From IMG/VR virus record IMGVR_UViG_3300038379_000173, positions 1 to 64,000 of that record: 64,000 nucleotides of DNA; one strand, given 5' to 3'. Below the pieces are notes generated by a model. That model made no database searches. It was not told the DNA's origin and saw only the letters and a program-made list of their open reading frames with translations. The stretch is from a virus (Duplodnaviria > Heunggongvirae > Uroviricota > Caudoviricetes). Position numbers and translations under genes: made by a program. Of this stretch, positions 19,714-63,869 are shown piece by piece (the first letter of the stretch is position 1; each line of letters starts with the position of its first letter).

Positions 19714-20937
19714 ATGACCATCACTCGCCTCATTAAAACAGACGCAGATGCTAACAATAATAAGTTTTGGGAAGCCGTCCTAGACCCCAATGGCGATAAA
19801 GTAATGTGCCGCTGGGGTAGGGTTGGCGCAAACGGTCAGCGCAAAACATTCAACGGCGGCCAACATTACATTGATAGGAAGGTCAAAGAAAAAACTTCCG
19901 AAGGATATGTTATCGCACAGGTTGTTGGAGGCGGCGAAACTATCACATGTGATACTAGTGCCATCAAAACTATTGCACGTCAGCAAATTGTAGCAGACAA
20001 AGAAACAGTCGCCCTTGTAGATGAATTGGTTGCGTGGAACATCCATAATATAACACAAAAATCTACGATGACAGTAAGTGTCTCATCTGGTACTATCTGT
20101 CTGCCGTCCGGTCTAGGTGTGCTGACACAGTCCGCAATAGATGAGGCCCGTAGACTCCTAAACACCATCGGCAGTAGTTCCAGGACAAATGACCCGGCTG
20201 GACACAAAACTGTTATCAACAAATACCTTTCCCTCGTTCCACAGATTGTTCCGAGAAAGCGCGGCTGGATTAATACCATTTTTTCTACACCCGAAGAAAT
20301 TGCCGCTCAAGAACATCTTTTAGATTCGCTCCAGGCAACTATTCAGACCCTTACACCGACTCAATCTTCTAAGGTCTTTGATGTTACGCTGAACAAACTC
20401 CAAGATGGGAATGAAGTTGGTCGCATTACAAGATTGTATGACGCAACGCGTCAAAACATACACCAGTCGTGTAGTCTACGACCAATCAATATCTATAAAA
20501 TAACTATGGGTGCAATGCGAGAGCGATATAACAAGTGCCAAGTTGGTAACCCAATGGAGTTATGGCATGGAACTGGAGTTGGCAACCTATTATCTATTTT
20601 GAAATGCGGCCTCATAATCCCATCTCATGCTTCGCATGGCCGTAACTTTGGCAATGGAATATATTTAACTGACCAATCTACAAAGGCACTTAATTATGCT
20701 GCTGGTTATTGGGATGGTAGGAGAGAGAAGCGATGTTTTATGTTTTTGGCAAACGTAAAAATGGGCCGGCCGTATACACCAGGGCCATATGACAGGAGTA
20801 ACTTCCCTCGGAGCGGCTATGACAGTGTATATGCCAAGGCTGGCTTCTCTGGGATTTTGAACAACGAAATGATTGTGTACGATACAGACCGAGTCGATTT
20901 AACATTCATTGTTGAATTTTCTGAAAGGGCATTATGA
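19714..20937 (+). CDS. PARP-like ADP-ribosyltransferase (N-terminal WGR domain + PARP catalytic domain)
   Basis: WGR: FWEAVLDPNGDKVMCRWGRVGANGQ; catalytic: ELWHGTGVGNLLSILKCGL (H-G-T), GNGIYLTDQSTKALNYA (Tyr), NNEMIVYDTDRVDL (Glu) align to PARP1 LLWHGSR / GIYFAD / YNEYIVYD. Confidence 0.85.
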   Translation: MTITRLIKTDADANNNKFWEAVLDPNGDKVMCRWGRVGANGQRKTFNGGQHYIDRKVKEKTSEGYVIAQVVGGGETITCDTSAIKTIARQQIVADKETVALVDELVAWNIHNITQKSTMTVSVSSGTICLPSGLGVLTQSAIDEARRLLNTIGSSSRTNDPAGHKTVINKYLSLVPQIVPRKRGWINTIFSTPEEIAAQEHLLDSLQATIQTLTPTQSSKVFDVTLNKLQDGNEVGRITRLYDATRQNIHQSCSLRPINIYKITMGAMRERYNKCQVGNPMELWHGTGVGNLLSILKCGLIIPSHASHGRNFGNGIYLTDQSTKALNYAAGYWDGRREKRCFMFLANVKMGRPYTPGPYDRSNFPRSGYDSVYAKAGFSGILNNEMIVYDTDRVDLTFIVEFSERAL

Positions 20938-28061: not shown

Positions 28062-28281
28062 CGAATATCGCGGGGGCTGGGAGCGAATTTGGGGCGCCGA
28101 TAGGCGTAAGGCTGACTGTGATAGCCTACCTCCATTCGGAGCCGATGCTGCCGATGTAGAATGTCCTTTGCCAGTAAGACGGGGCCGGCCAGTTGAAATA
28201 ACAGACGAAATAATAGAGACTCTTAAATCTTTGCCGCAACCACCAGATGGTGACGATTATTTTGAGGAGAAATATAAATGA
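28027..28281 (+). CDS. hypothetical protein
   Basis: internal ATG of track ORF 27955..28281. Confidence 0.4.
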   Translation: MTDKIKTRGPTDEYRGGWERIWGADRRKADCDSLPPFGADAADVECPLPVRRGRPVEITDEIIETLKSLPQPPDGDDYFEEKYK

Positions 28282-29180
28282 AACATTACGGAGAATTATC
28301 AATAAAACAAATGGCCGCACTTGGCGGCTGCGGCCTATTGGTCTTCCTCGGGAGTATATGTGGTCTGCGCTCATATAAAACCATCGAGCCTGGCACCGTT
28401 GGGTTGGTCACACGTTTTGGCGGTCTCACAGGCAGCGTGCTTACCGAAGGGTTTAATTTAAAGTTGCCCATTGATTCAGTGGACATCATGGATGTAAAGA
28501 TTAATCAACATTCCGGGTTAGGAATGCACGCCTCTTCCAAGGACATGCAGATTGTGACTACGTCGGTGTTAGTAAACTATAAATTAAACATCGAGCGCAT
28601 CATAGATATACGGCGACATATCGGGAAGGATGAAAAAGTTATTGAGGAAGGAGTGCTACAACCTCAACTCAATGAGAGCGTAAAGGCAGTGTGCGCCAAA
28701 TACAAGGCCGACCAATTGCTGGCCCAGCGCGCAAAGGTGCGCGAGGAAATGAACGAAGCGTTCCAGGCCAAGCTGGATGGAATACTAAAGGGCGCCTTCG
28801 TGGTAGTCGAATTTGCTATCACAGACTTTACGTTCTCCAATGCATTTAATCAAGCTATTGAGGCTAAAGTTGAGGCAGAGCAAACTGCTTTGCGCAAAGT
28901 AAATGAATTGGAGCAATCCAAGGCGGATGCAGAAAAGAAAATGGCGGTAGCGCGTGGTGAAGCCGAAAGTGCAAAGATTACCGCGGCGGCCAACGCAGAG
29001 GTAATCAAAATGAGAGCTAAAGCCGAAGCAGACGCTCTCTCTATTCAAAACCAAGTTCTAAAGTCCAATTTGGAATGGTTGGAGATGGAGCGACTGAGAC
29101 GCTGGGACGGTAAGCTACCTCTTGTAGTGGGTAGTGATAAGGTCTTTATGGATATTGGTAAGTTAGGAGGCGGCAAATGA
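28278..29180 (+). CDS. SPFH/Band-7 (prohibitin/HflK-like) membrane protein
   Basis: N-terminal TM helix followed by an SPFH-like core and a long Ala/Glu/Lys coiled-coil tail (AEQTALRKVNELEQSKADAEKKMAVARGEAESAK). Confidence 0.75.
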   Translation: MKHYGELSIKQMAALGGCGLLVFLGSICGLRSYKTIEPGTVGLVTRFGGLTGSVLTEGFNLKLPIDSVDIMDVKINQHSGLGMHASSKDMQIVTTSVLVNYKLNIERIIDIRRHIGKDEKVIEEGVLQPQLNESVKAVCAKYKADQLLAQRAKVREEMNEAFQAKLDGILKGAFVVVEFAITDFTFSNAFNQAIEAKVEAEQTALRKVNELEQSKADAEKKMAVARGEAESAKITAAANAEVIKMRAKAEADALSIQNQVLKSNLEWLEMERLRRWDGKLPLVVGSDKVFMDIGKLGGGK

Positions 29181-46493: not shown

Positions 46494-46515
46494 GGCGCCG
46501 GACAAAGCCGGCGCC
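46494..46515. terminator. bidirectional terminator hairpin between convergent genes
   Basis: ggcgccgg-acaaag-ccggcgcc; a U-run follows on the minus strand (tttctattt). Confidence 0.6.
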
Positions 46516-46542: not shown

Positions 46543-47331
46543 TTAGAGGCTTACACCCCACTTTGAAGCAAGGTGGGTCTTTACACTGTCCTCTTCGGAA
46601 GCACTAAGAATACGCGAGAAGACAAGTACCTCGTGGATGTCACCAGTGAGTTTGGTGTCGAATGTGCTACGCGCAACTGCGCCAAGGACTGTGTAGTTGC
46701 CGGCGAGACCAATTGAAGAAGAAGCATTGGCACTCTCGTTGGCTCCATTGTATTTAACTGAGTGGTAAGTAGCCGCTTCAATCTTTGCACTGTAAAGACC
46801 AACTTCGTTGTCTACTACGGTTGTGGTCGCTAGAGCTTGCACAGGGGTGCCACCACCACGCAATATGCAAACTGGAACACTAGCCGAATTACCAACTGTC
46901 GCATAAACACTTGAAGAAGTACTTTGTCCTTGAGACCAGAACGTATGATTACTACTTACGCCACTAATGGACCCAACAAGGAAAATGTGGGCTGGACGGC
47001 TAGCGAGTAAAGCTGCTGCATGTTGCAGACGCTCAGTGGCCGCGCCATTAAACCTTATGGCTGGCTTGCCATTAGCGACATTAGCGACGAAAAGTGGACC
47101 AATCGCAACGGGTGTCATGTCGAATGCGCTAGCAGACTTATCTGCCCATTCAGTTACACGATTGCTACCATCTAGGGTAAGTGTTGATGCGTCCGCGGCA
47201 TCGTGCCACATTACTAGGCCGCTTACGCTCTCTGGCGTGAATCCTTCATCAGTTACCGACAAATTGAGAACTAGAGAAGTTCCCGCGATTTGAATTGATA
47301 GAGGCTGGTTCAATAGTATACTCATGTTCAC
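46543..47331 (-). CDS. putative structural/lectin-like protein, paralog A (262 aa)
   Basis: ~40% identical to the adjacent 47362..48150; shared motifs DGSNRVTEW.DKS, GNVANG.PA.RFN, GDIHEV.V...L..EED. Confidence 0.55.
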   Translation of the reverse strand: MNMSILLNQPLSIQIAGTSLVLNLSVTDEGFTPESVSGLVMWHDAADASTLTLDGSNRVTEWADKSASAFDMTPVAIGPLFVANVANGKPAIRFNGAATERLQHAAALLASRPAHIFLVGSISGVSSNHTFWSQGQSTSSSVYATVGNSASVPVCILRGGGTPVQALATTTVVDNEVGLYSAKIEAATYHSVKYNGANESANASSSIGLAGNYTVLGAVARSTFDTKLTGDIHEVLVFSRILSASEEDSVKTHLASKWGVSL

Positions 47332-47361: not shown

Positions 47362-48150
47362 CTAGAGTCCAAGTCCCCATTTGTCAGACAAATAATCAAC
47401 TACCTGGTCTTCTTCACCACTTGCGAGAATTACATTGTAAACTATGACTTCATGTATATCGCCATCTAATTTATTATCGAAGCCACTACGGGCGTTGCTT
47501 CCGATGACTAAGTGTGTACCCGTTATTGCTATTGCCGCGCTAGCTAATCCTCCAGCGACAGAGTCATACTCAATAAGGAATTGATTTCCTTGATGAAAGC
47601 GACCCATATAAATACCTATGTTGCCACTTCCGATTGTAGTGGAGACTGTCGCGTCTATGGGCATTCCACCACCACGTAGCGTAGCTCGTGGCACACCAGT
47701 AATACTCCAGATATTACAGTAGATACTTGTTGATGATGTATTTCCTTGTGAGAAAAATGTATAGGAGTTAGCCAAACTATCATGAGAAGCAACAACAAAT
47801 ATCGTCGCTGGGCGACCTGGTATTAAAGCCGGTGTCCGCTGTAAACGCTCTGAGGCGTTAAAACGCAGTGCAGGCCGCCCATTTGCGACATTACCAACAT
47901 ATTGCGGCCCAGTGGCAGCAGGCGTCACGTGATAAAGAGATGGTGATTTATCGCGCCATTCTGTTACTCTATTTGAGCCGTCAAGAGTGACAGTCGCTTC
48001 ATCAGAGCCATCTAGCCATAATATTGTTCCGGAAAGTGTCGCTGGAGTAAAAACAAATGGATATGTAGCAGTAGATGGCCTAATGCTAAATGGGCCAACG
48101 AAATCTCCTGCGCCCAAAAGTACAGACGGTTTAATGAATTTACTAGCCAC
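47362..48150 (-). CDS. putative structural/lectin-like protein, paralog B (262 aa)
   Basis: tandem paralog of 46543..47331. Confidence 0.55.
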   Translation of the reverse strand: MASKFIKPSVLLGAGDFVGPFSIRPSTATYPFVFTPATLSGTILWLDGSDEATVTLDGSNRVTEWRDKSPSLYHVTPAATGPQYVGNVANGRPALRFNASERLQRTPALIPGRPATIFVVASHDSLANSYTFFSQGNTSSTSIYCNIWSITGVPRATLRGGGMPIDATVSTTIGSGNIGIYMGRFHQGNQFLIEYDSVAGGLASAAIAITGTHLVIGSNARSGFDNKLDGDIHEVIVYNVILASGEEDQVVDYLSDKWGLGL

Positions 48151-48464
48151 TAATTGACTTTCTTATACTTACGTGTTACCCTTTTGACATCACCTAGGCC
48201 CTTTGTTACTTCTTGCACTATATCATCTAATTCTGCGGCTACACCACAGTCTTTGGTGCGCTTTGCAATTTTGCGTGCAACCTCTTTGCGTATCTCTACT
48301 GGAAGGTCTTTTTTTGCGTCTTCAACCCCTTCGATAGTCGACACTAGTAATTTTTCATTATTATCAGCGCGCGCAGCTTCTTCTTTAGCTTTGCGCCATT
48401 CAAAATATGCTTTGGCCGCTCCGGCTAATGTTGTGAGCAATAAAATGGCAGTTTCAATATTCAT
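48150..48464 (-). CDS. membrane-anchored protein (104 aa, N-terminal TM)
   Basis: MNIETAILLLTTLAGAAKAYF, then a charged helical tail. Confidence 0.45.
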   Translation of the reverse strand: MNIETAILLLTTLAGAAKAYFEWRKAKEEAARADNNEKLLVSTIEGVEDAKKDLPVEIRKEVARKIAKRTKDCGVAAELDDIVQEVTKGLGDVKRVTRKYKKVN

Positions 48465-48524: not shown

Positions 48525-48553
48525 TTGATTAGAGGATTTTACAACTCTATATT
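48525..48553 (+). promoter_or_regulatory. sigma70-type promoter TTGATT-N17-TATATT
   Basis: 17-nt spacer; 13 nt upstream of RBS agagga and ATG 48567; in a divergent intergenic region. Confidence 0.5.
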
Positions 48554-48566
48554 TATAGAGGACACT

Positions 48567-48734
48567 ATGGATGACTACACGCTCAAGTCAGACAAACCGC
48601 ATAGTAAATATTGGGAGAAGATTATAGAGATGGCTAGAAACAATCCTGAGTATAAAAGAAAATATGGGCGCAGGAAGCTTAGACGTAAAACTAATGAAAA
48701 ACTTCGCCACCTAAAGGATTTACATGACATTTGA
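48567..48734 (+). CDS. small basic protein (55 aa)
   Basis: ATG downstream of the promoter; track lists TTG 48525. Confidence 0.4.
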   Translation: MDDYTLKSDKPHSKYWEKIIEMARNNPEYKRKYGRRKLRRKTNEKLRHLKDLHDI

Positions 48735-49017
48735 GGACTACTATAATGACGTTTATTTGCCGCGCCACTCTGCTGGAATTAACCGCGCACTCCATGTTGT
48801 TGGCACGCTTTGTTCCTTTGGAGTGTTTATTGGCGGCCTTGCTACTCTATCTCTAGGACTAACACTCTTGTCATTTCTTGTACCGTATCCTTTTGCATGG
48901 TTTGGTCACTTTTTAGAGGGCAACAAGCCAGTCGCTTGGAACGGTCCGTTGCGTGCGCGATTAGCAGATTGGCGTATGACTTATGAAACGATAAAGGCTA
49001 TTGTATGGCGCAAGTAA
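48724..49017 (+). CDS. membrane protein (two TM; DUF962/Mpo1-like?)
   Basis: YY..Y.P.H...N...H..G then two TM helices; family assignment tentative. Confidence 0.45.
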   Translation: MTFEDYYNDVYLPRHSAGINRALHVVGTLCSFGVFIGGLATLSLGLTLLSFLVPYPFAWFGHFLEGNKPVAWNGPLRARLADWRMTYETIKAIVWRK

Positions 49018-50219: not shown

Positions 50220-50512
50220 GAAATAACGACGAGACTTGTGCGTATGATGATTGCAGAGAGCGCAATACTGACACTTCTTTATATGTAGTGGAGGGGTTTG
50301 AGTGTGTGCGATATTTATGTGCGCAACACTTTGCGGAGATTGCGCGACTTTTTAGATTGATTGAAAAATGTCATAGGTGTGAAAGAAATAAAGCGGCCGA
50401 GAATGACCGCTTTTTACTTTCCTTTTTTAGTTTAAAGTTCAACGGTCGCGTCTGGGAATGTTGCGATAGCCATCGGCTAGCCTACGACTCCCTTGTTATT
50501 CCGCTTTATTGA
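50192..50512 (+). CDS. hypothetical Cys-rich protein
   Basis: ORF. Confidence 0.35.
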   Translation: MSWQPSTRVGNNDETCAYDDCRERNTDTSLYVVEGFECVRYLCAQHFAEIARLFRLIEKCHRCERNKAAENDRFLLSFFSLKFNGRVWECCDSHRLAYDSLVIPLY

Positions 50513-50937
50513 TTACCAGCGACGTTTGGTACCCGCGTAATTGTTTTGCCAGTATAAGAAGCAGCGCGTGCTGCGGCTTTTGTAATTGGCGTGCGCTCAT
50601 CAAATTGATAGTAGTATGCTGTAACTTCTACGCTCCCAGATGTTTTCATCTGTCCATATAGACCACTGCCGATACCTAAATCAACCGGGCCTTGGCCGGG
50701 TTTGTCCCAAATGAGAGTGCCGGAAGCCCCAAGAGCGATTTGAGGGCAAAGTTTAGAAGTGCGTTGTTCATAAAAGTTAATAGCACGCGTGTCTGTTTCT
50801 AGGTTGGCCGCCAATAAATTTGTAATAGCATATTGATAGCCACTAGCTGGTGCTAAAATCTCAGTAAAGCCGTTCGGAGCGACTCCGCTTACTATAACAG
50901 TTATGCGTTTTTCATTAAACCTTAAGTGAGGCGTCAT
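50506..50937 (-). CDS. Gly/Ser/Thr-rich protein, last gene of the tandem array (143 aa)
   Basis: ATGA-coupled to the upstream gene. Confidence 0.5.
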   Translation of the reverse strand: MTPHLRFNEKRITVIVSGVAPNGFTEILAPASGYQYAITNLLAANLETDTRAINFYEQRTSKLCPQIALGASGTLIWDKPGQGPVDLGIGSGLYGQMKTSGSVEVTAYYYQFDERTPITKAAARAASYTGKTITRVPNVAGNQ

Positions 50938-51389
50938 TAGGCCGCCGGGTCAATGCTGCCTGAGTTTACAGCGCGAGTTATTAATGTGTCGCCGATAGAT
51001 TGGCGGCCTACTAAACGATTTCCAGTATGGACCCAGCCTTCTTGGGCGTTGTCATTCTGAAGGGTATCAGCTACCACAGCAATTGTAGCATTCCCGGATG
51101 TATCAGCAAATACAGTACGCGAAGCACCGACTTCGGAAGCAATGCGTGCGGTAGTAAAGCGCGCCTGGAAAGCACCACCCCAGACAACTTCATCAAAATA
51201 ACTTGTAGTGCCGTTATCACGCACTATACTGCCGCTTCCAAGCGGACGAACTAAATCATGACGATGTGAAGTGACAGTTGTTACTGTGTCATCTTCCGAA
51301 GCAGTAGCAGTAATACGAGCAGAGCGCTGCCGATAAGAAACATTGTCCTTTGCTACCACTGAAATACCAGAAGCGTTTAATGAACCCAT
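50937..51389 (-). CDS. MGSLN-family protein 3 (150 aa)
   Basis: starts MGSLNAS; RBS aggag; part of the tandem paralog array. Confidence 0.55.
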   Translation of the reverse strand: MGSLNASGISVVAKDNVSYRQRSARITATASEDDTVTTVTSHRHDLVRPLGSGSIVRDNGTTSYFDEVVWGGAFQARFTTARIASEVGASRTVFADTSGNATIAVVADTLQNDNAQEGWVHTGNRLVGRQSIGDTLITRAVNSGSIDPAA

Positions 51390-51397
51390 GGGAACTC

Positions 51398-51949
51398 CTA
51401 GATAATATTGTAAGTGGCCTCAGGTAGCGAGTCCATATCGGTTGTGCCAGCCGAAGCCCCAACCGCAAGGCCAGTAGCATTAAAAATGGTCCAGTCAGCA
51501 AAACCGCTTGTGCGACCACGGTCAGAATCAATAAAAAATACCTTGCGCTCTTGGACTGTGCGTAGAGCGTCATGTGTTGCGTCTGCTTGTAAGTGCGAGA
51601 CAGATGAATGAATACCCATGGCACGGGTCACTTGATGTGAAAGATAGCCTGAGGCATTAACGTATTTTATTTTGTCTAATCCCTCTATACCAGAGCCGGC
51701 CGCGCTCAGTTGTAATTCAACGCGATTACGCGGCATACCACTAACAAAAGTGCGCCCATCGTTATCATACTCGAGTGAAACGCCAAAAGGCTCAGCGTAA
51801 TTACCACGGTCAACTGTCCCACTATTAGACAGCTTCACAATTTCTGTATCTGTGGCAGTATTCGTACGCCGCAGATAATTCCCATAGTGAGAAATTCTTA
51901 GCACGTTACCAGATTGTGTTATAACACTACCATTATTCAGGCTACCCAT
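51398..51949 (-). CDS. MGSLN-family protein 2 (183 aa)
   Basis: starts MGSLNNGS; RBS aggtgg. Confidence 0.55.
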   Translation of the reverse strand: MGSLNNGSVITQSGNVLRISHYGNYLRRTNTATDTEIVKLSNSGTVDRGNYAEPFGVSLEYDNDGRTFVSGMPRNRVELQLSAAGSGIEGLDKIKYVNASGYLSHQVTRAMGIHSSVSHLQADATHDALRTVQERKVFFIDSDRGRTSGFADWTIFNATGLAVGASAGTTDMDSLPEATYNII

Positions 51950-52380
51950 TATCCACCTGCGAATGAAGTGTTAGCTGTCCGAGTAGTAACGTCCGAAGCT
52001 GTATCACTATTCAAAATACGTGCGCCGGCGTGAGCGTGATGATTTGTTGTGATATCTAATAGACCAATTTCAGGATGAGCACCAGAGGCTAGTGACACTG
52101 TATCTGTTAGACGCCTAATTGTAAAATCTTCAGCAGAATCAGTAACTTTCACCCCACGACTCATAATATACGTACTTTGGACTAGGCCAGTCGGAGGAGT
52201 TATAATAAGTGTGGAAGTTCTAAATTGCCCTTCGACCAACCCACCATCTATTGTAAGGTCAGATGATTGAGCGAAATGTGCAACATCTCCACTTGCTATA
52301 GTTATATTGCGGCCCAGTGACCTTGTGGTCAAATTCCTCTTAGGTTGAACGTTTACATCCGAGGAATTAAGAGAGCCCAT
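51949..52380 (-). CDS. MGSLN-family protein 1 (143 aa)
   Basis: starts MGSLNSS. Confidence 0.55.
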   Translation of the reverse strand: MGSLNSSDVNVQPKRNLTTRSLGRNITIASGDVAHFAQSSDLTIDGGLVEGQFRTSTLIITPPTGLVQSTYIMSRGVKVTDSAEDFTIRRLTDTVSLASGAHPEIGLLDITTNHHAHAGARILNSDTASDVTTRTANTSFAGG

Positions 52381-52382
52381 TT

Positions 52383-52811
52383 TTAAGCCTCGAGATAGGT
52401 AATTCCAACTCGACCTTGGAGTGCCCTGTTGGTATCAAGGGCTGTACCGACAGTATAGCGCATTGTGAGTGTGCTACCGCTAGCAAGCACGCGCGCGTTG
52501 CCCTGGTCCTCACTCCAAGTAAACATGTGGCCTTGTAGGCTATCAAGAGTGCCAGAGGCAAGTAAGCCAGTGTTGGACCACAGTGCAACGTCAGGACCGG
52601 CGGCTTCTGCTGTATCAATTTCGAAGCTCACGAAATCAAGTGATGCGCGGCGAGCAAGAAAATGTGTGCCGATACCGTTAGCGGTACTTAATAGTACTTG
52701 GTTGTTAATTGTCCCAGAGAGGGATGTGGCGTTACCAAGAAAAACATCGCGCCCTAAAACTGTTGGGCGACCTTGAAGTTCCTTGACGCGTTTTTTATAT
52801 TCACGGCCCAT
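52383..52811 (-). CDS. Gly/Ser/Thr/Leu-rich protein, first gene of the tandem array (142 aa)
   Basis: starts MGREYKK; composition similar to the downstream paralogs. Confidence 0.5.
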   Translation of the reverse strand: MGREYKKRVKELQGRPTVLGRDVFLGNATSLSGTINNQVLLSTANGIGTHFLARRASLDFVSFEIDTAEAAGPDVALWSNTGLLASGTLDSLQGHMFTWSEDQGNARVLASGSTLTMRYTVGTALDTNRALQGRVGITYLEA

Positions 52812-52893: not shown

Positions 52894-53406
52894 TTACCAT
52901 CCCAAAATAATTTCTACACCGCGCCTAAGTGCAACTAGAAGAAGGGCCGCCTCATCCATTCCAACTGGAATTGACAATTTGGTTAATTCCTCACCCTTGC
53001 CTTTTTGGGCCGCTACGCTCATGAAATAGCCGGGCCGCTCCTTGTATTCCTGATATTTAAACTCAATGGATTTATTACCACCACCTGGAGTTTCGTGATA
53101 GAGTTTAAGTGGATAGGACGGTTTGTGTTCTTGAAGGTAGGCTAAAAACTTTGAAATGTCTGGTAAGCCTAACTTCACACATACCTTGTTATCCCAGTCG
53201 TACGGTCGCTCGCTATCCATTGGAGCGATTTGTTTTGCACATTCCAAAAACATGCAATCGCGGCTGCTACTAATAGAAAACTGGGCCGCACTCCCGGTAT
53301 TTTTTTGGTTGGCTTTGTAGATAGACAAATTGCGCGTGCGCTTTTTGAAAATCTTTTTGCCTGCCGATTTTTCTTTTTGCTCAACTTTTTCTTCTTGCTC
53401 AGACAT
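52894..53406 (-). CDS. hypothetical Lys-rich protein (170 aa)
   Basis: ORF. Confidence 0.5.
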   Translation of the reverse strand: MSEQEEKVEQKEKSAGKKIFKKRTRNLSIYKANQKNTGSAAQFSISSSRDCMFLECAKQIAPMDSERPYDWDNKVCVKLGLPDISKFLAYLQEHKPSYPLKLYHETPGGGNKSIEFKYQEYKERPGYFMSVAAQKGKGEELTKLSIPVGMDEAALLLVALRRGVEIILGW

Positions 53407-56332: not shown

Positions 56333-57298
56333 TTAGCCGCCCAAGCGCTTAAGGTCCGCACGCACCATTTCAGCTACTAACTCACTAAAGAAATAGAGCG
56401 GCTGCCACCCCAACGTCTCACGAATTTTGGTAGCATCCCCACAAAGCAAATCGACTTCAGCCGGCCGCATATAAGCCGTGTCACTTTGGACGTAACGCTC
56501 CCAATCATTAATACCCACAAAATGGAAAGCTTCGCGGCAAAAATCTGCCACACTATGAGTTTTACCAGTTGCAATAACAAAATCGTCCGGGGAAGAGTGT
56601 TGGAGAATGCGCCAGATTGCCTCCACTGAATCTTTGGCGTGCCCCCAGTCGCGTTTAGCCGCCAAATTCCCTAGGGTGAGTTTATCAGCTAGACCGAGCT
56701 TAATGCGTGCTACTCCATCTGTGATTTTGCGTGTAACAAATTCCAAACCCCTACGCGGGCCTTCTGAATTAAATAATATACCATTGGCAGCAAACATTCC
56801 GTAGGACTCGCGATAATTTCGTGTAATCCAATAGCCATATAGCTTGGCCGCCGCATAAGGGCTACGGGGATAGAAAGGTGTGGACTCGCGCTGTGGTGTC
56901 TCTTGCACCTTCCCATACATTTCGCTGGAAGAAGCTTGATAAAACCGCGTCGTTGGTGATATTTGTCGGAGAGCCTCAAGACAATTTGTAACTCCAAGGC
57001 CAGTCACCATTCCGGTATGAAATGGCTCATTCCACGAAGCTTTGACAAACGACATGGCCGCTAAGTTATAGAATTCATCAGGCCGCCACTTCTCTACCAA
57101 TCTATTGATTGACCCAGAATCTATGATATCGGCTTGTTCTAAATGAAACTTCTCAGAAGTGACGTGAGATAGATTGTCAAGACCGCCGACTGCACGACGG
57201 CGAGTCGTGCCAACTACCGTATAGGACTTTTCTAGTAGAAGGTCGATTAGGTGGGAGCCAAGCTGCCCATTAGCACCTGTTACTATAGCGACGGCCAT
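56333..57298 (-). CDS. gmd: GDP-mannose 4,6-dehydratase-like SDR
   Basis: N-terminal Rossmann VTGANGQLGSHLIDLLLEKSY; 321 aa extended-SDR. Confidence 0.75.
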   Translation of the reverse strand: MAVAIVTGANGQLGSHLIDLLLEKSYTVVGTTRRRAVGGLDNLSHVTSEKFHLEQADIIDSGSINRLVEKWRPDEFYNLAAMSFVKASWNEPFHTGMVTGLGVTNCLEALRQISPTTRFYQASSSEMYGKVQETPQRESTPFYPRSPYAAAKLYGYWITRNYRESYGMFAANGILFNSEGPRRGLEFVTRKITDGVARIKLGLADKLTLGNLAAKRDWGHAKDSVEAIWRILQHSSPDDFVIATGKTHSVADFCREAFHFVGINDWERYVQSDTAYMRPAEVDLLCGDATKIRETLGWQPLYFFSELVAEMVRADLKRLGG

Positions 57299-57516
57299 GA
57301 TGCACCTCTGCTATTAATTAAGCTTTTGAATTCACTATGATGATATAGTATTTGTCGTATGTATTCTACAACCTGAACAAAGCGGACCTTGTCTTTTAAC
57401 CTGTCATATATTGCTTCATTATCTAGGTCGCAGTTTAAAAAATCGTCAAGTCGCTCAACGTGGTAGAGTAGCTCTCGAAAGCTACCCCATTCTTCATTGC
57501 TTAAAATATGATGCAT
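57283..57516 (-). CDS. hypothetical protein (77 aa)
   Basis: ORF. Confidence 0.4.
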   Translation of the reverse strand: MHHILSNEEWGSFRELLYHVERLDDFLNCDLDNEAIYDRLKDKVRFVQVVEYIRQILYHHSEFKSLINSRGASWPSL

Positions 57517-57581
57517 TTGTTACCTCATTTGTTCCGCAAAAGTTGCGCAAACATTTGCGTGTAAAACCATGTGAACATCCT

Positions 57582-57935
57582 CTATTTTTGACACGATGAT
57601 ACTTTGAGTAGCACGCAACCGTTGGGACCGGCCACAATACGATGTAGGAGCGGCGGACGCACTATGATTGGTGTGAAATATAGCATGGTAAGGTCAATTA
57701 GGTTGTAGTTGTCCCACTCGTCGGGTTGCTCTAATTGGAGAGTAGCCGCCCCTTTTATGAGACTAAGATACTCCACTACAGATTGATTGTAAGTGAGCGG
57801 TAATCGTTCATTTGGTTTGATTTGTAGTTCTTCAACTATATATTTGGGCTTAGCGACCAATACCTCAGACGTGCCCCATGACATAGTGGCGACAGCTCGC
57901 GGTAATTCATTTACTTCTTCTATTGTCATCAGCAT
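57582..57935 (-). CDS. hypothetical protein (117 aa)
   Basis: ORF. Confidence 0.45.
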   Translation of the reverse strand: MLMTIEEVNELPRAVATMSWGTSEVLVAKPKYIVEELQIKPNERLPLTYNQSVVEYLSLIKGAATLQLEQPDEWDNYNLIDLTMLYFTPIIVRPPLLHRIVAGPNGCVLLKVSSCQK

Positions 57936-58591
57936 TGCTTACCCCGCATTCTACTAATATGGTCAAAGAGAGTGCGTACGTTTAAATCCTCGAAAGAGGA
58001 TAATTCCCAGACATAACATCCAGCTTCGCGGGCGCTTTGAATCCCCTTGGGGCTATCCTCTACTACCAAACAATTCTTAGGCGGAACATACAAGAGATGG
58101 GCCGCCTTTTGATATGGAAAAGGAGATGGTTTAATAGCTTCGCCCACATCTTCGTTCGTAACAACAACGCTCATAAATTGCTTTAGATGAGCGCGTTCCA
58201 ACATCATCTCGGTTGTATAGCGAGAACAATTTGTTACTAGACCTACGGGCGCTAAAGATTCGGCATATGCGACTGTATCTGTTACGCGTGTTATTGGGTG
58301 ACAATATTTCTCTATGTATTGAACGGTCAAAAGCTGTTTCTGTTGGTTTATTGTGTCCCAGAGAGCTTTATCGTTTGATAGCCGACCTTCAGCAGCCAAT
58401 ATTTGCAGTTTGCGTTGTGTAGATAGACCGTTGAATCGTTGGGAGTGTTCTAGTTCGGTAACCTGAATACCAGCACACCAAGAAAGTGCGGCCAAAAACG
58501 CCTGTTCGTGCCACTGGGCCGCATTAACTAGCGTTCCATCTAAATCAAACAGGAAAGCTGCTGGGATTCTAGGTCTATCCAGACTGTCCAT
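57929..58591 (-). CDS. HAD-superfamily hydrolase (beta-phosphoglucomutase/phosphatase-like)
   Basis: motif I FLFDLDGTLV. Confidence 0.7.
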   Translation of the reverse strand: MDSLDRPRIPAAFLFDLDGTLVNAAQWHEQAFLAALSWCAGIQVTELEHSQRFNGLSTQRKLQILAAEGRLSNDKALWDTINQQKQLLTVQYIEKYCHPITRVTDTVAYAESLAPVGLVTNCSRYTTEMMLERAHLKQFMSVVVTNEDVGEAIKPSPFPYQKAAHLLYVPPKNCLVVEDSPKGIQSAREAGCYVWELSSFEDLNVRTLFDHISRMRGKQC

Positions 58592-58826
58592 AGGACTTTA
58601 CCTCATCTGTAACATTAGCAGCCCCAGGGGTCATTTTATTCAGGAGATTTTTGAGTTTAGACCGTTGCTCGCACAACGCTATGTCTTTAGCCATTAGAGC
58701 GGCCAACTCTTCCTTTGTATAATTCTCTGGACTACGCGCCATTAAAGTTTTGGTATTACACAAATCATACATTTTTGCGTTAACTATAGAGAGAGCATCT
58801 ACCAAATCACCAAGTAGCATTACCAT
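58575..58826 (-). CDS. hypothetical protein (83 aa)
   Basis: ORF. Confidence 0.45.
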   Translation of the reverse strand: MVMLLGDLVDALSIVNAKMYDLCNTKTLMARSPENYTKEELAALMAKDIALCEQRSKLKNLLNKMTPGAANVTDEVKSYGQSG

Positions 58827-59644
58827 TTCTCCAAATCTAGCCCATAAGCAGCTAGGGCTGCTGCGTTTTTAGCTTCACGTTGCTCTCGCGGACAATGCAA
58901 TTGGTTGCCGAAATGTATAAATGAACCCCAGTGAGAATGCACACCCCATTGAACCGGGCGATGCTTGCAAACTTTGTATGTGAGACGGTCCAACAAAATA
59001 GTAGTAGTATCACCCCAGCCACAATACTTGCGGTAAGTTTTCTCTACAAGATTCTCAACTAAAGTTTTCTCTGTAGAGAATTGTTCTTGTAATGAAGAGA
59101 CCTTCATGTCATACAAAAATGTAGTATCCTTTGCAAATTCGTGGTCTACTGCAAAAATCTGCGGCATAATTTCATGGCCATCAAATGTTAGCTCAAAGGA
59201 CTGTCCACCATGCTCCATTTGATATGGCCCCTGTGGCCCTACCGTATCACATGCGACTGGCCGCCCGCTTACCTTCCACTTTTCAAACTCAGCCCAAAAC
59301 CCCTGTTCGTTCAACAGTAGTATGTCCCCGTGCATATGCAGGATGTTTTCAATTGGCCCCATCTCGCGCTCTAAGTCCTTTATTTCCAACATTCCATGTG
59401 TGATTTGGCGCATGATGGAAGTGGAGACCAATTCGTTGAATTTCTTTCCTACTATATCTTTCAGATGCACCACGCGCGTGTATGGGTCGCTTTCAAAGCG
59501 TAAGGTGTGGTCCTTGTCGCCAGTAATAACCACTACGATGGGCGCTTCGCGCGCGGAGGTCCATTTGGTGCGCAACATATTGACTGTAAAAGTCACTTCC
59601 TTCATAGTATCGTAGGAAGTTATTAGGAAAGCTAGCTTAGGCAA
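58820..59644 (-). CDS. hypothetical protein (274 aa), possible glycosyltransferase
   Basis: position within the sugar operon only; no motif confidently recognised. Confidence 0.45.
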   Translation of the reverse strand: MPKLAFLITSYDTMKEVTFTVNMLRTKWTSAREAPIVVVITGDKDHTLRFESDPYTRVVHLKDIVGKKFNELVSTSIMRQITHGMLEIKDLEREMGPIENILHMHGDILLLNEQGFWAEFEKWKVSGRPVACDTVGPQGPYQMEHGGQSFELTFDGHEIMPQIFAVDHEFAKDTTFLYDMKVSSLQEQFSTEKTLVENLVEKTYRKYCGWGDTTTILLDRLTYKVCKHRPVQWGVHSHWGSFIHFGNQLHCPREQREAKNAAALAAYGLDLEKW

Positions 59645-60530
59645 GTGTCACCATTCTTTGTAATTTTCCATCCCAATTAAAAGCTTCAAACGATTCAGTG
59701 TCGTTTAGAGAATAAATGGCCACCTTGTAGTCGTCTGGGGTTCCCATTGGAACCATCAACTCAACTGGATATGTTCTAATATCAAATTTTAGTATTTCAT
59801 TGTAAACTGGACAGACATAAAATTCGCCATTAACCCTCTTATTTTGTTTTATCATAGAGTGCGCCGCATCAACGAAGGTCCCGCCGGTCCAAAAATAATA
59901 GATACCGACTGTAGCTCGGTCACTTATTGGCTGTTTCTCTGCAACTTCTTCAACAAAACCGCGTTGGTTCAACTTAGCATACGACCAACGAGTATCATTC
60001 TCCTTGTAAGGTTTAAAGGTCGCAATCATACCTCCGCACGAATCGTAAATTGCTTGGTTCAACATGTCTTGGATTGTACCAGTCTCCATAATCCATTGAT
60101 GGCCACCCTGGAACGCACGGACATGCACTTTATTTCGCACATTCCAAACACACAATTGGTCTGAATTCGCAATGACTAACTCGTCATAATTATCGATTAG
60201 GTCTTCTGCCATCAAGACAGTACAAGCCGCACCCTCAGTTACTTTGTCAACTACACGAACGACTGTTTTAGCCCTCAACTCTTCTGGCATCTGTGATTCC
60301 CAGAGAGGAAGATGCTCTGAGCGTAATAGAACAATATAGCGATGTGGCATAAGGGGCATGACATTATACATTACGCGCGCCAACATTGGCAGACCACCAA
60401 CATCCAAGAATGGTTTTGGCGTAGTATAGCCAGCTTCCAAGAAGCGCCGACCAGCCCCAGCCGCAGGTATAACAATATTAAGCATTTTTGTTCCAAACCC
60501 CAAAGATAACAGCGCCGCCATCTGTGCCAA
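59637..60530 (-). CDS. sugar-phosphate nucleotidyltransferase
   Basis: N-terminal IVIPAAGAGRRF...PKPFLDVGGLPM signature. Confidence 0.75.
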   Translation of the reverse strand: MAQMAALLSLGFGTKMLNIVIPAAGAGRRFLEAGYTTPKPFLDVGGLPMLARVMYNVMPLMPHRYIVLLRSEHLPLWESQMPEELRAKTVVRVVDKVTEGAACTVLMAEDLIDNYDELVIANSDQLCVWNVRNKVHVRAFQGGHQWIMETGTIQDMLNQAIYDSCGGMIATFKPYKENDTRWSYAKLNQRGFVEEVAEKQPISDRATVGIYYFWTGGTFVDAAHSMIKQNKRVNGEFYVCPVYNEILKFDIRTYPVELMVPMGTPDDYKVAIYSLNDTESFEAFNWDGKLQRMVTLA

Positions 60531-61083
60531 TTTGTGCCGCGCACTGTTTCACCCTATGATAATTCCTATCGCAATCGACAGTAAATCCCAGGGCGACTAA
60601 ATCCTCCGTAACCCATGTACTTTTGTGTCGCTGTGCCTCTACTGCCACTTCTTTTTCACCCTTAGCTTCAATTTTAGCAGCACAGCTTGTTTCGCCAAAC
60701 CCGAAAGATTCTTCACCACTCTGGTTACAAGTCCCGTGTGGCGCAAAGATAATGATGCGCCGCGCGACTTTTTGAAGACGCTTAAGTAAATCCAACCCCG
60801 CATCTTTTTCTACGTGCTCGAGAAAATCAATGAGAGTGAAAACATCGGGAGTTATACCAGATGTGGCTAACAGTCTATCGAATTCAAGAGCGTTCCCATG
60901 TATGACAACCCAATCGCCTGGCACGCGGTTCTCAATATAAGATGAAATTAACTCTATACCAACACGCTGCCGACTACGGTAGTGTGGAAAATTCTCGAAG
61001 TGTCCAGCGCCCAATTCACACACACTATACATATCCTTAGTATTGTCGGACAAGAAACTCAAGAATTTAGGCATGTTGGCCAT
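60478..61083 (-). CDS. putative SAM-dependent methyltransferase
   Basis: VCELGAGHF (motif I-like) and VFTLIDFLEHV; tentative. Confidence 0.45.
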   Translation of the reverse strand: MANMPKFLSFLSDNTKDMYSVCELGAGHFENFPHYRSRQRVGIELISSYIENRVPGDWVVIHGNALEFDRLLATSGITPDVFTLIDFLEHVEKDAGLDLLKRLQKVARRIIIFAPHGTCNQSGEESFGFGETSCAAKIEAKGEKEVAVEAQRHKSTWVTEDLVALGFTVDCDRNYHRVKQCAAQIGTDGGAVIFGVWNKNA

Positions 61084-62188
61084 TATGAAGTCTCCTAAAG
61101 TATTCTACTACTTCCTTGACTGTCTCTTCTAGAGAGATATCTGCCTTCCAACCTAACTCATTGGCTGCTAACTCAACAGATGGTAGACGCACTTGAACGT
61201 CATGTTCAAATGGTTTTTCGCTTTCCCACGCAAATGGGACTGCCGACCCGTGAACTTCTCGCCATACCATTTCGGCCAACTCTAATATGGAAGTTTTACG
61301 GGCAACAGAGATATTAAAAGCGCGGTTAATCTTTCCTCTGTGTTCCATGACCGCAGCGACGCCACGCGCAATATCCTTGCCATGCGTAAAACATCTTACT
61401 TGCTGACCATCTCCGTAGAGTCTCAGTGGATTTTGGCCGCGCAAACATTTTACGACTAGGTCAGGTAGCACATGAGACATGCGTAACTTGATATTGCCAC
61501 TTTGAACTTCAGGCTCATTCGGTGACTCTTCCTCGCCTAACCCCACAGCATTGAATGGTCGCACTATACCATAGTCTAGTCCGTATTGAGTGTGAGCGCC
61601 CTCGGCAAAATATTCAATGGCCAACTTGCTAAATCCATAGGTACTATAGGGGGGTGGAAATTGTTTAGTTTGCCACTCGTGAGAAGGCCAAATAGATTTG
61701 TGTAACGCGCTCTGGTAAACTTTATCATCTACAGAATTATCATTAGATATATATTGAAGGTGTTCTAAATGTGCGTCCGCACCTTCGTATACCATCGAGG
61801 AAGATATAACAACTACTTTCTCTAGGGCCGATTCTTTGTATGCTTTAATAGCCGCATCGAAAGTGTTGGCCGCAATCCGCTCGTTTGTTGCCAGGAGGTC
61901 ATAGGCCCTGTCATGGAAGTATTTAATGCCGCCGACCATTGCGGCCCCGGCAATCAAATATTTAACTGAATAGCGCTTTAGAACATTGAATAACTTCACC
62001 ACAGCATACATGCCAGTAAGGTCCATCTCAACAAAGCGGAAATATGGATGGTTATCGTAGTCGCGTGCAACCTTCCCATATTTTGAATAGTTATCAATTC
62101 CAATAACGCGATAATCGTTCTCAAGTAGGTGGCGGCAAATATAGCCACCAAGAAAACCCTGGGAACCCGTCACACAGACAGTTTTCAT
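61067..62188 (-). CDS. NAD-dependent sugar epimerase/dehydratase (extended SDR)
   Basis: VCVTGSQGFLGGYICRHL Rossmann; YGFSKLAIEYF (YxxxK). Confidence 0.8.
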   Translation of the reverse strand: MKTVCVTGSQGFLGGYICRHLLENDYRVIGIDNYSKYGKVARDYDNHPYFRFVEMDLTGMYAVVKLFNVLKRYSVKYLIAGAAMVGGIKYFHDRAYDLLATNERIAANTFDAAIKAYKESALEKVVVISSSMVYEGADAHLEHLQYISNDNSVDDKVYQSALHKSIWPSHEWQTKQFPPPYSTYGFSKLAIEYFAEGAHTQYGLDYGIVRPFNAVGLGEEESPNEPEVQSGNIKLRMSHVLPDLVVKCLRGQNPLRLYGDGQQVRCFTHGKDIARGVAAVMEHRGKINRAFNISVARKTSILELAEMVWREVHGSAVPFAWESEKPFEHDVQVRLPSVELAANELGWKADISLEETVKEVVEYFRRLHNGQHA

Positions 62189-62481
62189 TGGGCCACATCA
62201 CCTTTCAATTCATTCTTGGGCGGCAAATCGTAATCATATAAGCCAAGTCGTTGGGCCTCGGCTGTTAATTCGTCGGCTGCTGCTTTTAGTTTTTCGTTAT
62301 CGTCACCGAAGAACTGTTTATTCCACAAAGAGGCAAGGCCCCACACTTCCCTTTGGTCCTCTGGCGACAATTGTTCGTAGATATCATCTAAGGATGAATG
62401 TAGTGCGGCCATTCTTTCATAGAGTTTGGCACGTACCCTTAGTAGGGTTAGATACACGCCTTTGTAGTCATCTATTGTCAT
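62185..62481 (-). CDS. hypothetical protein (98 aa)
   Basis: ATGA overlap. Confidence 0.45.
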   Translation of the reverse strand: MTIDDYKGVYLTLLRVRAKLYERMAALHSSLDDIYEQLSPEDQREVWGLASLWNKQFFGDDNEKLKAAADELTAEAQRLGLYDYDLPPKNELKGDVAQ

Positions 62482-62633
62482 AGATAAATCCTAAGGAGAA
62501 TAAGGATGGTGGCAAGTAAACATACTGTGCCGTAGCACACACCGTATTGAATATAGGTCAATAGACACAAAATAGCCGCACAAAACCATGCACCATATTC
62601 AACATGGGCTAATGACTTAAACTGACGATTCAT
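62478..62633 (-). CDS. small membrane protein (51 aa)
   Basis: ATGA-coupled at both ends; hydrophobic; not in the track. Confidence 0.35.
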   Translation of the reverse strand: MNRQFKSLAHVEYGAWFCAAILCLLTYIQYGVCYGTVCLLATILILLRIYL

Positions 62634-63523
62634 TTGCGCATCCCACTTGGGACAGTAACATCATAGAGTTTGTTGTCATCGCGCACTACACGAAATATTT
62701 CGGCCGGAACATCTAAGTCACTGGCAAGTTTTGTGAACGCTGAAACTTCCTTGGGTAGACATTGGCCTGCATACCCACGCCATTGTTCATTACAATCCAA
62801 ATAGGAATTTTCAATGCAAGATTGTTTGCACACCGCGTTTTTAACTGCTGTGTAATCAGCCCCAAGACGCTCGCATACCTCATAGAAACCATTGGCAAAA
62901 ATAATTTTGGTGGCCCTATAGACATTATTAAAGTATTTGACCAATTCTGCCTCAGTGGAGGTGAGGCGAACGAAATTTTGTGGGTAATGACCATGAAGGT
63001 CGCAGATTATCTTGTATACCTGTGCGTCATAATCTACCCAATGCGGCATTGGCTCAGAACGATAAGGTAGGCCCACAACACATACTTCATGGTGCTCAGT
63101 GAAGTCGCTAAAAGCCGAACGCTCACGTAAAAATTCAGGGACGAAACAAAGGCGGAGTAGATGGCCATCGCGAAATTCATCTGAATACTTTTGGTAAGTC
63201 TCTTGATATTTATTGAAAAGCCGCTGTGTCGTGCCAGGTAAAACGGTAGACTTAATCGCAATGATTCCAAGATAGCGCGCAGCTATCAATTCGTCAACTA
63301 CACCCTCAACAATGGATGTGTCGCAACTACCATCAGCAGCCATTGGCGTAGGCACACAGATAAAACACACTCCGGTGTTGAGTACCGCCTGGATTGTAGT
63401 GCCAAGACGTAAATCGTGCCTAAAAATGCGGTGGCCGAGGCGCTCGAGACCGAGCGCCACGGCACTACCGACACAACCTTCACTGCCAATAATGCCTATG
63501 GGGACATTAATCAATTGGAACAT
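62630..63523 (-). CDS. UDP-glucose/GDP-mannose dehydrogenase-family protein (shortened)
   Basis: GIIGSEGCVGSAVALGLERLGH; CVPTPMAADGSCD; VPEFLRERSAFSDF; ATG 63523 preferred over 63598. Confidence 0.65.
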   Translation of the reverse strand: MFQLINVPIGIIGSEGCVGSAVALGLERLGHRIFRHDLRLGTTIQAVLNTGVCFICVPTPMAADGSCDTSIVEGVVDELIAARYLGIIAIKSTVLPGTTQRLFNKYQETYQKYSDEFRDGHLLRLCFVPEFLRERSAFSDFTEHHEVCVVGLPYRSEPMPHWVDYDAQVYKIICDLHGHYPQNFVRLTSTEAELVKYFNNVYRATKIIFANGFYEVCERLGADYTAVKNAVCKQSCIENSYLDCNEQWRGYAGQCLPKEVSAFTKLASDLDVPAEIFRVVRDDNKLYDVTVPSGMRK

Positions 63524-63869
63524 TAACCTCATCCAGTCTTGTTGACTGTCTCGGCACACGAATTGTAAGTACTCCATCTGCAAGAGTAGCCTTAACATCC
63601 TGTGGAGTAGCCGTTCCGATTGTCACCGACTTAGCGAAACTAAGACCTTTCTTAGAGCCCGAAACATTAAGTCTGGTAGGCGTTACAGTTACTTTTACAT
63701 CCTTCTTGGAAACCCCAGGAAGTTCCAATGTATAAACCCATTCTTTATCAGTTGGCTCAACTGATAAACCAGAAGATGCTGACAAATCCATAAAAAGAGA
63801 CGATGGCCAATCCAAAATTTGTCGGGTTGGCGCATTAAAAACATCATCCAAGAGAGACAACATTCCCAC
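63507..63869 (-). CDS. Hsp20/alpha-crystallin small heat-shock protein
   Basis: C-terminal ADGVLTIRVPRQ motif; ~120 aa; GTG 63869 or ATG 63863. Confidence 0.7.
   Translation of the reverse strand: MGMLSLLDDVFNAPTRQILDWPSSLFMDLSASSGLSVEPTDKEWVYTLELPGVSKKDVKVTVTPTRLNVSGSKKGLSFAKSVTIGTATPQDVKATLADGVLTIRVPRQSTRLDEVNVPID

Follow-up and report, generated by a model that had tools for sequence, protein, structure and literature searches.

Results and discussion

In a 64,000-nucleotide stretch of DNA from a virus of the Caudoviricetes (positions 1 to 64,000 of the IMG/VR virus record IMGVR_UViG_3300038379_000173; this whole stretch is hereafter called the window), three adjacent genes encode small proteins that start with the pentapeptide MGSLN. 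Judging from alignments with related phages, MGSLN is the most conserved tip of an N-terminal module of about 40 amino acids (aa) that is common to the three protein families. The genes are part of a cassette of five tightly packed minus-strand open reading frames (ORFs) at 50506-52811, which, by its sequence relatives, belongs to a clade of large phages carrying rIIA and rIIB and having no cultured member. The module defines a previously undescribed protein family that follows a familiar phage design. From its sequence, and by analogy with known phage proteins, we infer with moderate confidence that the module serves virion-surface proteins as an N-terminal element for docking or assembly.

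A module shared by the N-termini of three adjacent proteins

The cassette opens with g5 (family F5; 52383..52811, minus strand), which has a Shine-Dalgarno sequence and encodes a 142-aa protein beginning MGREYKKRVKE; it represents a separate family, in which 12 of 13 orthologs have an MG start. The three carriers of the module follow on the same strand: g4 (F4; 51949..52380, 143 aa, MGSLNS), g3 (F3; 51398..51949, 183 aa, MGSLNN) and g2 (F2; 50937..51389, 150 aa, MGSLNA). g4 is paralogous to g2 over its full length and evolves faster than the other members, whereas g3 has only the N-terminal module in common with them and continues into a C-terminal body of its own, ERKVFFIDSDRG..ADWTIF. The last gene, g1 (F1; 50506..50937, minus strand, 143 aa, MTPHL), belongs to another separate family, with a conserved C-terminal TRxPNxxGxQ motif. 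The module (residues 1-42) was located on the minus strand at 52255..52380 in g4, 51824..51949 in g3 and 51264..51389 in g2, from the ranges aligned by hhalign and the alignment of the N-termini and, for g2, also from AlphaFold. Stop and start codons overlap as TAATG at the g4/g3 and g2/g1 junctions, which points to coupled translation of the cassette; the remaining starts are served by GGAG-type ribosome-binding sites. The same five genes were obtained in an independent gene call on a 148.8-kb contig encoding identical proteins. No signal peptide or membrane segment was found in the translations of the five proteins, nor were internal repeats found within any of the five families.

The MGSLN-S/N/A starts had been noticed in an earlier examination of the letters and ORFs of the window (hereafter the sequence-only reading), whose coordinates agree with the ORFs and whose first codons were exact: ATG GGC TCT CTT AAT in g4, ATG GGT AGC CTG AAT in g3 and ATG GGT TCA TTA AAC in g2. 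The shared starts go well beyond a chance resemblance. The proposal of the sequence-only reading that selection on the protein maintains the pentapeptide was strengthened by the relatives: among 45 distinct gene starts Ser3 is encoded by AGY in 22 and by TCN in 23, and Leu4 by five codons. Because Ser3 uses both codon families and Leu4 five codons, recent duplication and a constraint at the RNA level are ruled out. The explanation of the identical starts by recent duplication, gene conversion or a requirement of RNA or translation initiation, which draws on the general influence that the first codons of a gene can have on initiation efficiency and on nothing specific to the window, is thus refuted and has practically no chance of being correct, since synonymous positions differ in almost every codon, in the window and in the 45 gene starts, and apart from the start the paralogs share only about 20% identity.

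The aligned N-termini of F4, F3 and F2 read M-G-S-L-N-x-x-G-x-x-[IV]-x-x-[KQ]-...-[YF]-R-x-x-G-...-[ILV]-x-x-[TS]. In 56 F2 and F4 sequences M1 and S3 are invariant, and G2, V11 and K14 are present in 93%, 96% and 98%, respectively. G2 is replaced only by A or S among the 56, and by P in three metagenomic F4 orthologs; position 6 is variable and holds A, N, S, L, F, T, I, H or P. Given the specificity of methionine aminopeptidase, Gly, Ala, Ser and Pro at position 2 all permit removal of the initiator methionine, and since these are all the residues found there, the mature proteins probably begin with Gly/Ala/Ser/Pro-Ser-Leu-Asn. MGSLN is kept in g3 orthologs down to 35% identity, and a scan of all loci for ATG-GGN-Ser starts found the motif on three genes in a row in each of the related phages. 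Exactly three carriers were present in all 13 cassettes covered end to end, whatever their bodies, and the module was seen only at residue 1 and nowhere else in the proteins scanned. The F3 protein departs from GSLN only where F2 departs too (15 genomes, counts of 3/0/2/10; Fisher p = 0.02, a value uncorrected for shared ancestry), and these joint departures may reflect co-evolution of the modules. In one F3 ortholog (L019:590-1072) the start is doubled, MGSNNL-MGSLTPS: two ATG-GGN-AGT starts lie in frame at a distance of 18 nt. A literature search for MGSLN returned nothing relevant. The N-terminus of T4 gp11, MSLLNNKAGVIS, resembles MGSLNNGSVIT; this resemblance received no support from the hidden Markov model (HMM) of the module and was dropped as a chance similarity.

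Family relationships and distribution

Alignments of each family were built from 24 related loci and their profiles compared pairwise with hhalign. F4 and F2 matched over their full length (98% probability, E 1.6e-14, residues 1-141 against 1-146), while the match of the F3 profile to F4 and F2 was restricted to residues 1-36 and 1-42 (E 4e-6 and 4e-5). The F5 and F1 profiles showed no relation to the remaining families (probability below 2%). Pairwise BLAST of g2, g3 and g4 found nothing past the first 30 residues or so. The description of the cassette as five paralogs therefore gives way to three families, with F4 and F2 related throughout, F3 joined to them by its N-terminus only, and F5 and F1 unrelated to the others.

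The order F5-F4-F3-F2-F1 is kept in about 20 metagenomic phage loci, on contigs of up to 178-183 kb. The cassette proteins are 27-57% identical to the window copy and diverge about as fast as the products of neighboring genes, so the locus is not hypervariable. The sequence-only reading envisaged an array of variable copy number that provides interchangeable modules. In every complete cassette each gene is present once and the module has exactly three carriers, which contradicts the variable array; interchangeability does hold across the clade as swaps of the body behind the module, described below, but not as variation in copy number.

Searched exhaustively with the profile, 1.84 billion representative proteins yielded only 52 clusters, most of them proteins of 130-154 aa matching from residue 1 and the rest fragments plus one 177-aa protein matching only from residue 62. 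Searches of 50,697 phage records with DNA and tblastn gave no match for the region, g4 or g2, and no relative was found in 185,579 bacterial and archaeal genomes. For the five cassette proteins nothing significant came from Pfam, PHROGs, NCBIfam or PADLOC, and sequence and profile searches of the PDB with the five family profiles found nothing. The rIIA protein of the window is at most 33% identical to that of any cultured phage.

The module on other bodies

Relatives combine the module with bodies of other kinds. One example is a 334-aa protein encoded inside the cassette of locus L033 (L033:8568-9572), which consists of the module, a short linker and a complete lectin-like body. Its residues 1-37 match window g3 (E 6e-4; module HMM 1.9e-7), and its residues 55-321 match residues 34-259 of the lectin-like protein encoded at 46543-47331 in the window (E 7e-14). 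The connection that the sequence-only reading drew between the array and the pair of 262-aa lectin-like genes is thus real: in this relative the module is fused to a body homologous to that pair. In L024 and in the L033 lineage the F3 body is encoded on its own, by an ORF without the module that starts MSSY[ND]YP, and in L019 a lectin-like ORF stands immediately upstream of F3.

In locus L032 a 543-aa protein (L032:10587-12218) carries a diverged module, MGSNQSDGSRINQ, on a large unrelated body (module HMM 0.008; phmmer 5e-6 to an F4 protein). Its gene is placed after F2, and F4 is missing from this cassette. The body has propeller-like repeats, for which the PDB matches were not significant. 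Between this carrier and F1 lies a 174-aa ORF (L032:12218-12742) with a lipoprotein-type signal (MHKLSIVLVACLALFGC). The F4 ortholog of locus L002 is 329 aa long, and its C-terminal extension matches phrog_972, 'tail fiber protein proximal subunit' (3.7e-6). By tblastn against the 50,697 phage records, the L032 protein and the L002 extension gave no match or noise.

Composition and predicted structure

The sequence-only reading had called the proteins Gly/Ser/Thr-rich and of low complexity. The first description is accurate: Gly, Ser and Thr make up 26-34% of their residues, against a window mean of 18.7% (sd 5%), and the five cassette proteins and the lectin-like pair are among the ORFs of the window richest in these residues. 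Lys and Glu together account for 3-8% of the cassette proteins, against a window mean of 12.7%. The second description is not strictly true, as residue entropy is 3.84-4.04 bits and the window mean 4.06.

AlphaFold gave a mean pLDDT of 43 with an alignment of 16 sequences, and of 65 (pTM 0.28) with one of 56. In the latter model residues 1-16 are predicted as coil and beta hairpins or meanders are predicted at 17-40, 52-66 and 117-141, with no globular packing; residues 17-40 of the g2 module would form a three-stranded beta meander. Hairpins without packing are compatible with subunits that fold only on assembly, though not diagnostic of them.

A putative docking or assembly element

The suggestion that the conserved N-terminus could be an assembly or attachment signal is the one that we favor, as the module occurs only at residue 1 and is fused in relatives to other bodies, a lectin-like one included. 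We prefer a docking role because the module is conserved, restricted to the N-terminus and recombined onto other bodies, while its three carriers and the gene order stay fixed. Several further lines of evidence point in the same direction. The cassette proteins and the lectin-like pair are rich in Gly, Ser and Thr and poor in Lys and Glu; the lectin-like domain matches a 'virion structural protein' PHROG and a gene of the tail module of Erythrobacter phage ZS04; stop and start codons overlap, and ORFs of 478-870 aa, two of them lectin-like, directly follow the cassette in relatives; and hairpins lacking packing in the AlphaFold model are expected of subunits that fold on assembly. There is also a precedent in the short N-terminal peptides that attach receptor-binding proteins to adaptors (PMC6872550).

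Promoter-like motifs in the relatives lend additional support. The sequence T(T/C)AAATAG, one mismatch away from the T4 late promoter TATAAATA, is found 23-50 nt upstream of F5 in six relatives (L003:7105; L007:5087, 5113; L010:1232, 1257; L011:407, 432; L013:2007, 2032; L002:5875), often in two copies about 25 nt apart and mostly in intergenic DNA. In the window itself TATAAATA was considered as a late promoter and rejected, as its 6 copies, on both strands, are about the number expected by chance and none stands upstream of g5.

In such a mechanism the module would connect three distinct bodies either to one shared platform or to one another. The site would be on a virion appendage such as a fiber, a peripheral part of the baseplate or a decoration; the F5 and F1 proteins are candidate platform or connector subunits, and the lectin-like proteins would be the distal binding parts. 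A different reading, which we regard as quite unlikely, is that the three modules, in place of docking one by one, join as a heterotrimeric stem with one chain per gene, so that a single appendage shows three distal bodies. These would be, depending on the phage, small beta bodies, a lectin or a propeller-like body. A heterotrimeric stem would explain why three carriers are kept even after body swaps, why translation is coupled and why F3 and F2 depart from GSLN together. Phage fibers are almost always homotrimers.

A number of observations weigh against a docking role on the virion. The cassette is situated among genes for replication, modification and sugar nucleotides, not in a recognizable structural module. 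We infer the virion location of its five products from the genes, no cultured relative having been found. No T4gp10-like adaptor domain was detected in the window region, and the late-promoter-like motif of the relatives is absent upstream of g5 in the window. The bodies are small (134-199 aa) and have no recognizable binding or enzymatic domain and no match in Pfam, PHROG, NCBIfam or the PDB. The match to phrog_972 is confined to one ortholog, and pairwise comparisons of that L002 extension with T4 gp34 and gp10 were not significant. The AlphaFold model, of low confidence, had no fold match.

Comparison with known systems

The nearest known mechanism, by analogy, is that of a conserved N-terminal peptide by which further receptor-binding proteins dock on an adaptor or anchor. 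Such peptides, of 7-11 residues in K1-5, K1E and SP6 and up to about 70 in Klebsiella phages, attach receptor-binding proteins to the adaptor or anchor (PMC6872550); branched systems of this kind include the tailspikes of K1-5, K1E and SP6 on adaptor gp37, gp63.1 and gp66 of G7C, and the Klebsiella KP32, KP34, Menlow and PhiK64-1 groups (Latka et al. 2019, PMC6872550). As in the cassette, a short N-terminal sequence recurs on several adjacent proteins, is conserved within a group and carries bodies that are exchanged between relatives. In those systems the N-terminal sequence docks the protein on another virion protein, a role that is proposed for the cassette module. The cassette differs in that most of its bodies add just 100-150 aa or so to the module and lack depolymerase and beta-helix domains; a large C-terminal domain for receptor binding or depolymerase activity is absent from the window carriers (143-183 aa). 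Its three carriers are also stable orthologs clade-wide, and the phages bearing them are large and carry rII genes, in contrast to the podoviruses of the known systems.

The long-tail-fiber cluster of T4 (genes 34-37) likewise consists of adjacent genes, in that case for segments of one appendage. T4 gp34, gp36 and gp37 begin MAEIK, MADLK and MATLK in different codons (L026:4810-13623), a parallel to the MGSLN trio, and the extra domain of the L002 F4 protein matches the PHROG of gp34. On the other hand, the cassette proteins have no detectable homology to T4 gp34-37 or gp9-12, and their sizes differ from those by an order of magnitude.

Alternative explanations

The cassette might instead encode a non-virion complex, intracellular or associated with the envelope, that serves, for example, in host takeover, exclusion or glycan handling, the module then being an oligomerization element. 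Its surroundings fit this idea, as it always comes after HD, MT-A70 and Whirly genes together with a block of at least 10 same-strand genes for sugar-nucleotide enzymes and glycosyltransferases; the five proteins showed no homology to structural proteins in the family searches, and the L032 cassette includes the lipoprotein-like ORF. We nevertheless consider such a complex unlikely. The five proteins have a composition that is usual for proteins of virion appendages and differs from that of other proteins of the window; the module, or F4, is fused to a lectin-like body whose relatives are annotated as virion structural proteins and to a tail-fiber-like domain; late-promoter-like motifs precede F5 in relatives; and the five proteins themselves are devoid of signal peptides and membrane segments.

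Another possibility, and a very unlikely one in our estimation, is that the module is a head-targeting signal comparable to the capsid-targeting sequence (CTS) of T4, which would direct the proteins into the prohead core and then be cleaved by the prohead protease. The T4 internal proteins IPI, IPII and IPIII are diverse and have in common only the conserved N-terminal CTS, which sets their destination during assembly (PMC3012670). In the cassette, several small neighboring proteins likewise have only the N-terminus in common; the bodies behind the module can differ, and some T4-like genes (rIIA, rIIB and RNA ligase 1) are present in the phage. The proposal fits less well than docking. The first 45 alignment columns hold no conserved Glu and no L/I-x-E cleavage motif; residues 17-40 of the module are predicted as beta strands belonging to the fold; F4 and F2 are full-length paralogs, and F4, F3 and F2 have stable one-to-one orthologs in nearly all loci, with no non-orthologous replacement; the uncharged composition, poor in Lys and Glu, is unlike that of the charged T4 internal proteins; and lectin-like and tail-fiber-like fusion partners suggest outward-facing functions.

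Finally, it is extremely improbable that the N-terminal glycine is an MGxxxS/T-type myristoylation site anchoring the proteins to a membrane: MGSLNS does fit the eukaryotic N-myristoylation pattern, and the MG and basic cluster of F5 (MGREYKKRVK) resemble myristoyl-plus-basic motifs, but strong Shine-Dalgarno sequences and phage genes indicate a bacterial host, bacteria to our knowledge lack N-myristoyltransferase, G2 gives way to A, S or P in some members, and position 6 is not limited to S/T.

The lectin-like pair and its operon

The two lectin-like genes of the window, described in the sequence-only reading as paralogs, are indeed true paralogs (46% identity, E 2e-76). Both are on the minus strand and encode proteins similar to concanavalin A and laminin G domains (ConA/LamG-like). 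Lectin-like protein 1 (47362..48150) is 262 aa long and matches phrog_10356, 'virion structural protein', at 7e-16; protein 2 (46543..47331), 260 aa when started from the ATG at 47325 chosen by gene callers, is the homolog of the body of L033:8568-9572. In a comparison of the pair with PHROG 10356 the E values were 1.6e-17 and 7.1e-16, over residues 26-261. Laminin_G_3 of Pfam scored 14.7 and 14.5 bits, below its gathering cut-off of 27.6 (E 0.04 for protein 1). By tblastn, protein 1 also matched gp37 of Erythrobacter phage ZS04, the last gene of the ZS04 tail module. The pair resembles the ConA/LamG-like structural proteins of phages in matching the PHROG over the full domain and in having the C-terminal motif GDIxEVxVF...KWG; it differs from them in consisting of the domain alone and in its Laminin_G_3 scores below the cut-off.

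In the window the lectin-like genes make up a unit of their own. The first gene of this operon (48150..48464, minus strand) encodes a 104-aa protein whose N-terminus is hydrophobic and whose remaining part is charged and helical; no family match was found for it. Upstream, in a divergent intergenic region, the T4 late-promoter consensus TATAAATA occurs at 48550..48557 (minus strand), which we take as a hint only, and lectin gene 2 is followed by a strong terminator-like hairpin at 46494..46515 (minus strand) of 8 G-C pairs and then a T run. Between the cassette and the lectin operon there is a block of small genes on the opposite strand, one of which (48724-49017, plus strand) encodes a 97-aa Mpo1-like protein (PF06127, 9e-18).

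Genomic context

Upstream, the cassette adjoins in all relatives a gene for a Whirly-fold protein, which in the window encodes 170 aa (52894..53406, minus strand; Pfam PF08536, 3.3e-7) and may be the single-stranded-DNA-binding protein of the clade. The conserved order is Whirly-fold gene, a small coiled-coil gene at some loci, and F5-F4-F3-F2-F1. In more distant relatives the ORFs of 478-870 aa that come directly after the cassette form one family, and its members in L003 and L021 contain the lectin-like domain of the window pair.

Elsewhere the window encodes rIIA and rIIB (16281-19432), a T4-type RNA ligase 1, a WGR-PARP protein and many sugar-nucleotide enzymes. The WGR-PARP gene (19714-20937, plus strand), just downstream of rIIA/rIIB, specifies a protein of 407 aa in which Pfam recognizes WGR and PARP catalytic domains (1e-10 and 1.6e-21) and which resembles poly(ADP-ribose) polymerases, and a 300-aa SPFH/Band 7 protein (PF01145, 3e-26) is encoded at 28278-29180 (plus strand). 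A long block of same-strand sugar-nucleotide genes occupies 56333-63598 (minus strand) and continues beyond the window (L030:1-10000). It includes genes for GDP-mannose 4,6-dehydratase, several epimerases, UDP-glucose dehydrogenase, a nucleotidyltransferase, a HAD hydrolase, UDP-GlcNAc 2-epimerase and a family-2 glycosyltransferase, in addition to a Trypsin_2 peptidase and HSP20. This block could serve glycosylation of DNA or of the virion, in which case the Ser/Thr-rich cassette proteins encoded downstream would be candidate targets.

Significance

Should the proteins prove to be non-structural, what was found would amount to an orphan paralog family and no more. Of the regularities seen, the one that intrigues us most is the fixed count of three carriers, which suggests the heterotrimer model; an obligate heterotrimeric fiber stem would, if true, be unusual. 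If the module is a docking handle, it would constitute a new and very compact attachment system, of about 40 residues with an almost invariant Gly-Ser-Leu-Asn tip, which could also be used to display foreign domains. It would moreover provide a sequence rule for recognizing surface or host-recognition proteins of these phages in metagenomes, namely an ORF starting with MGSL beside a Whirly gene.

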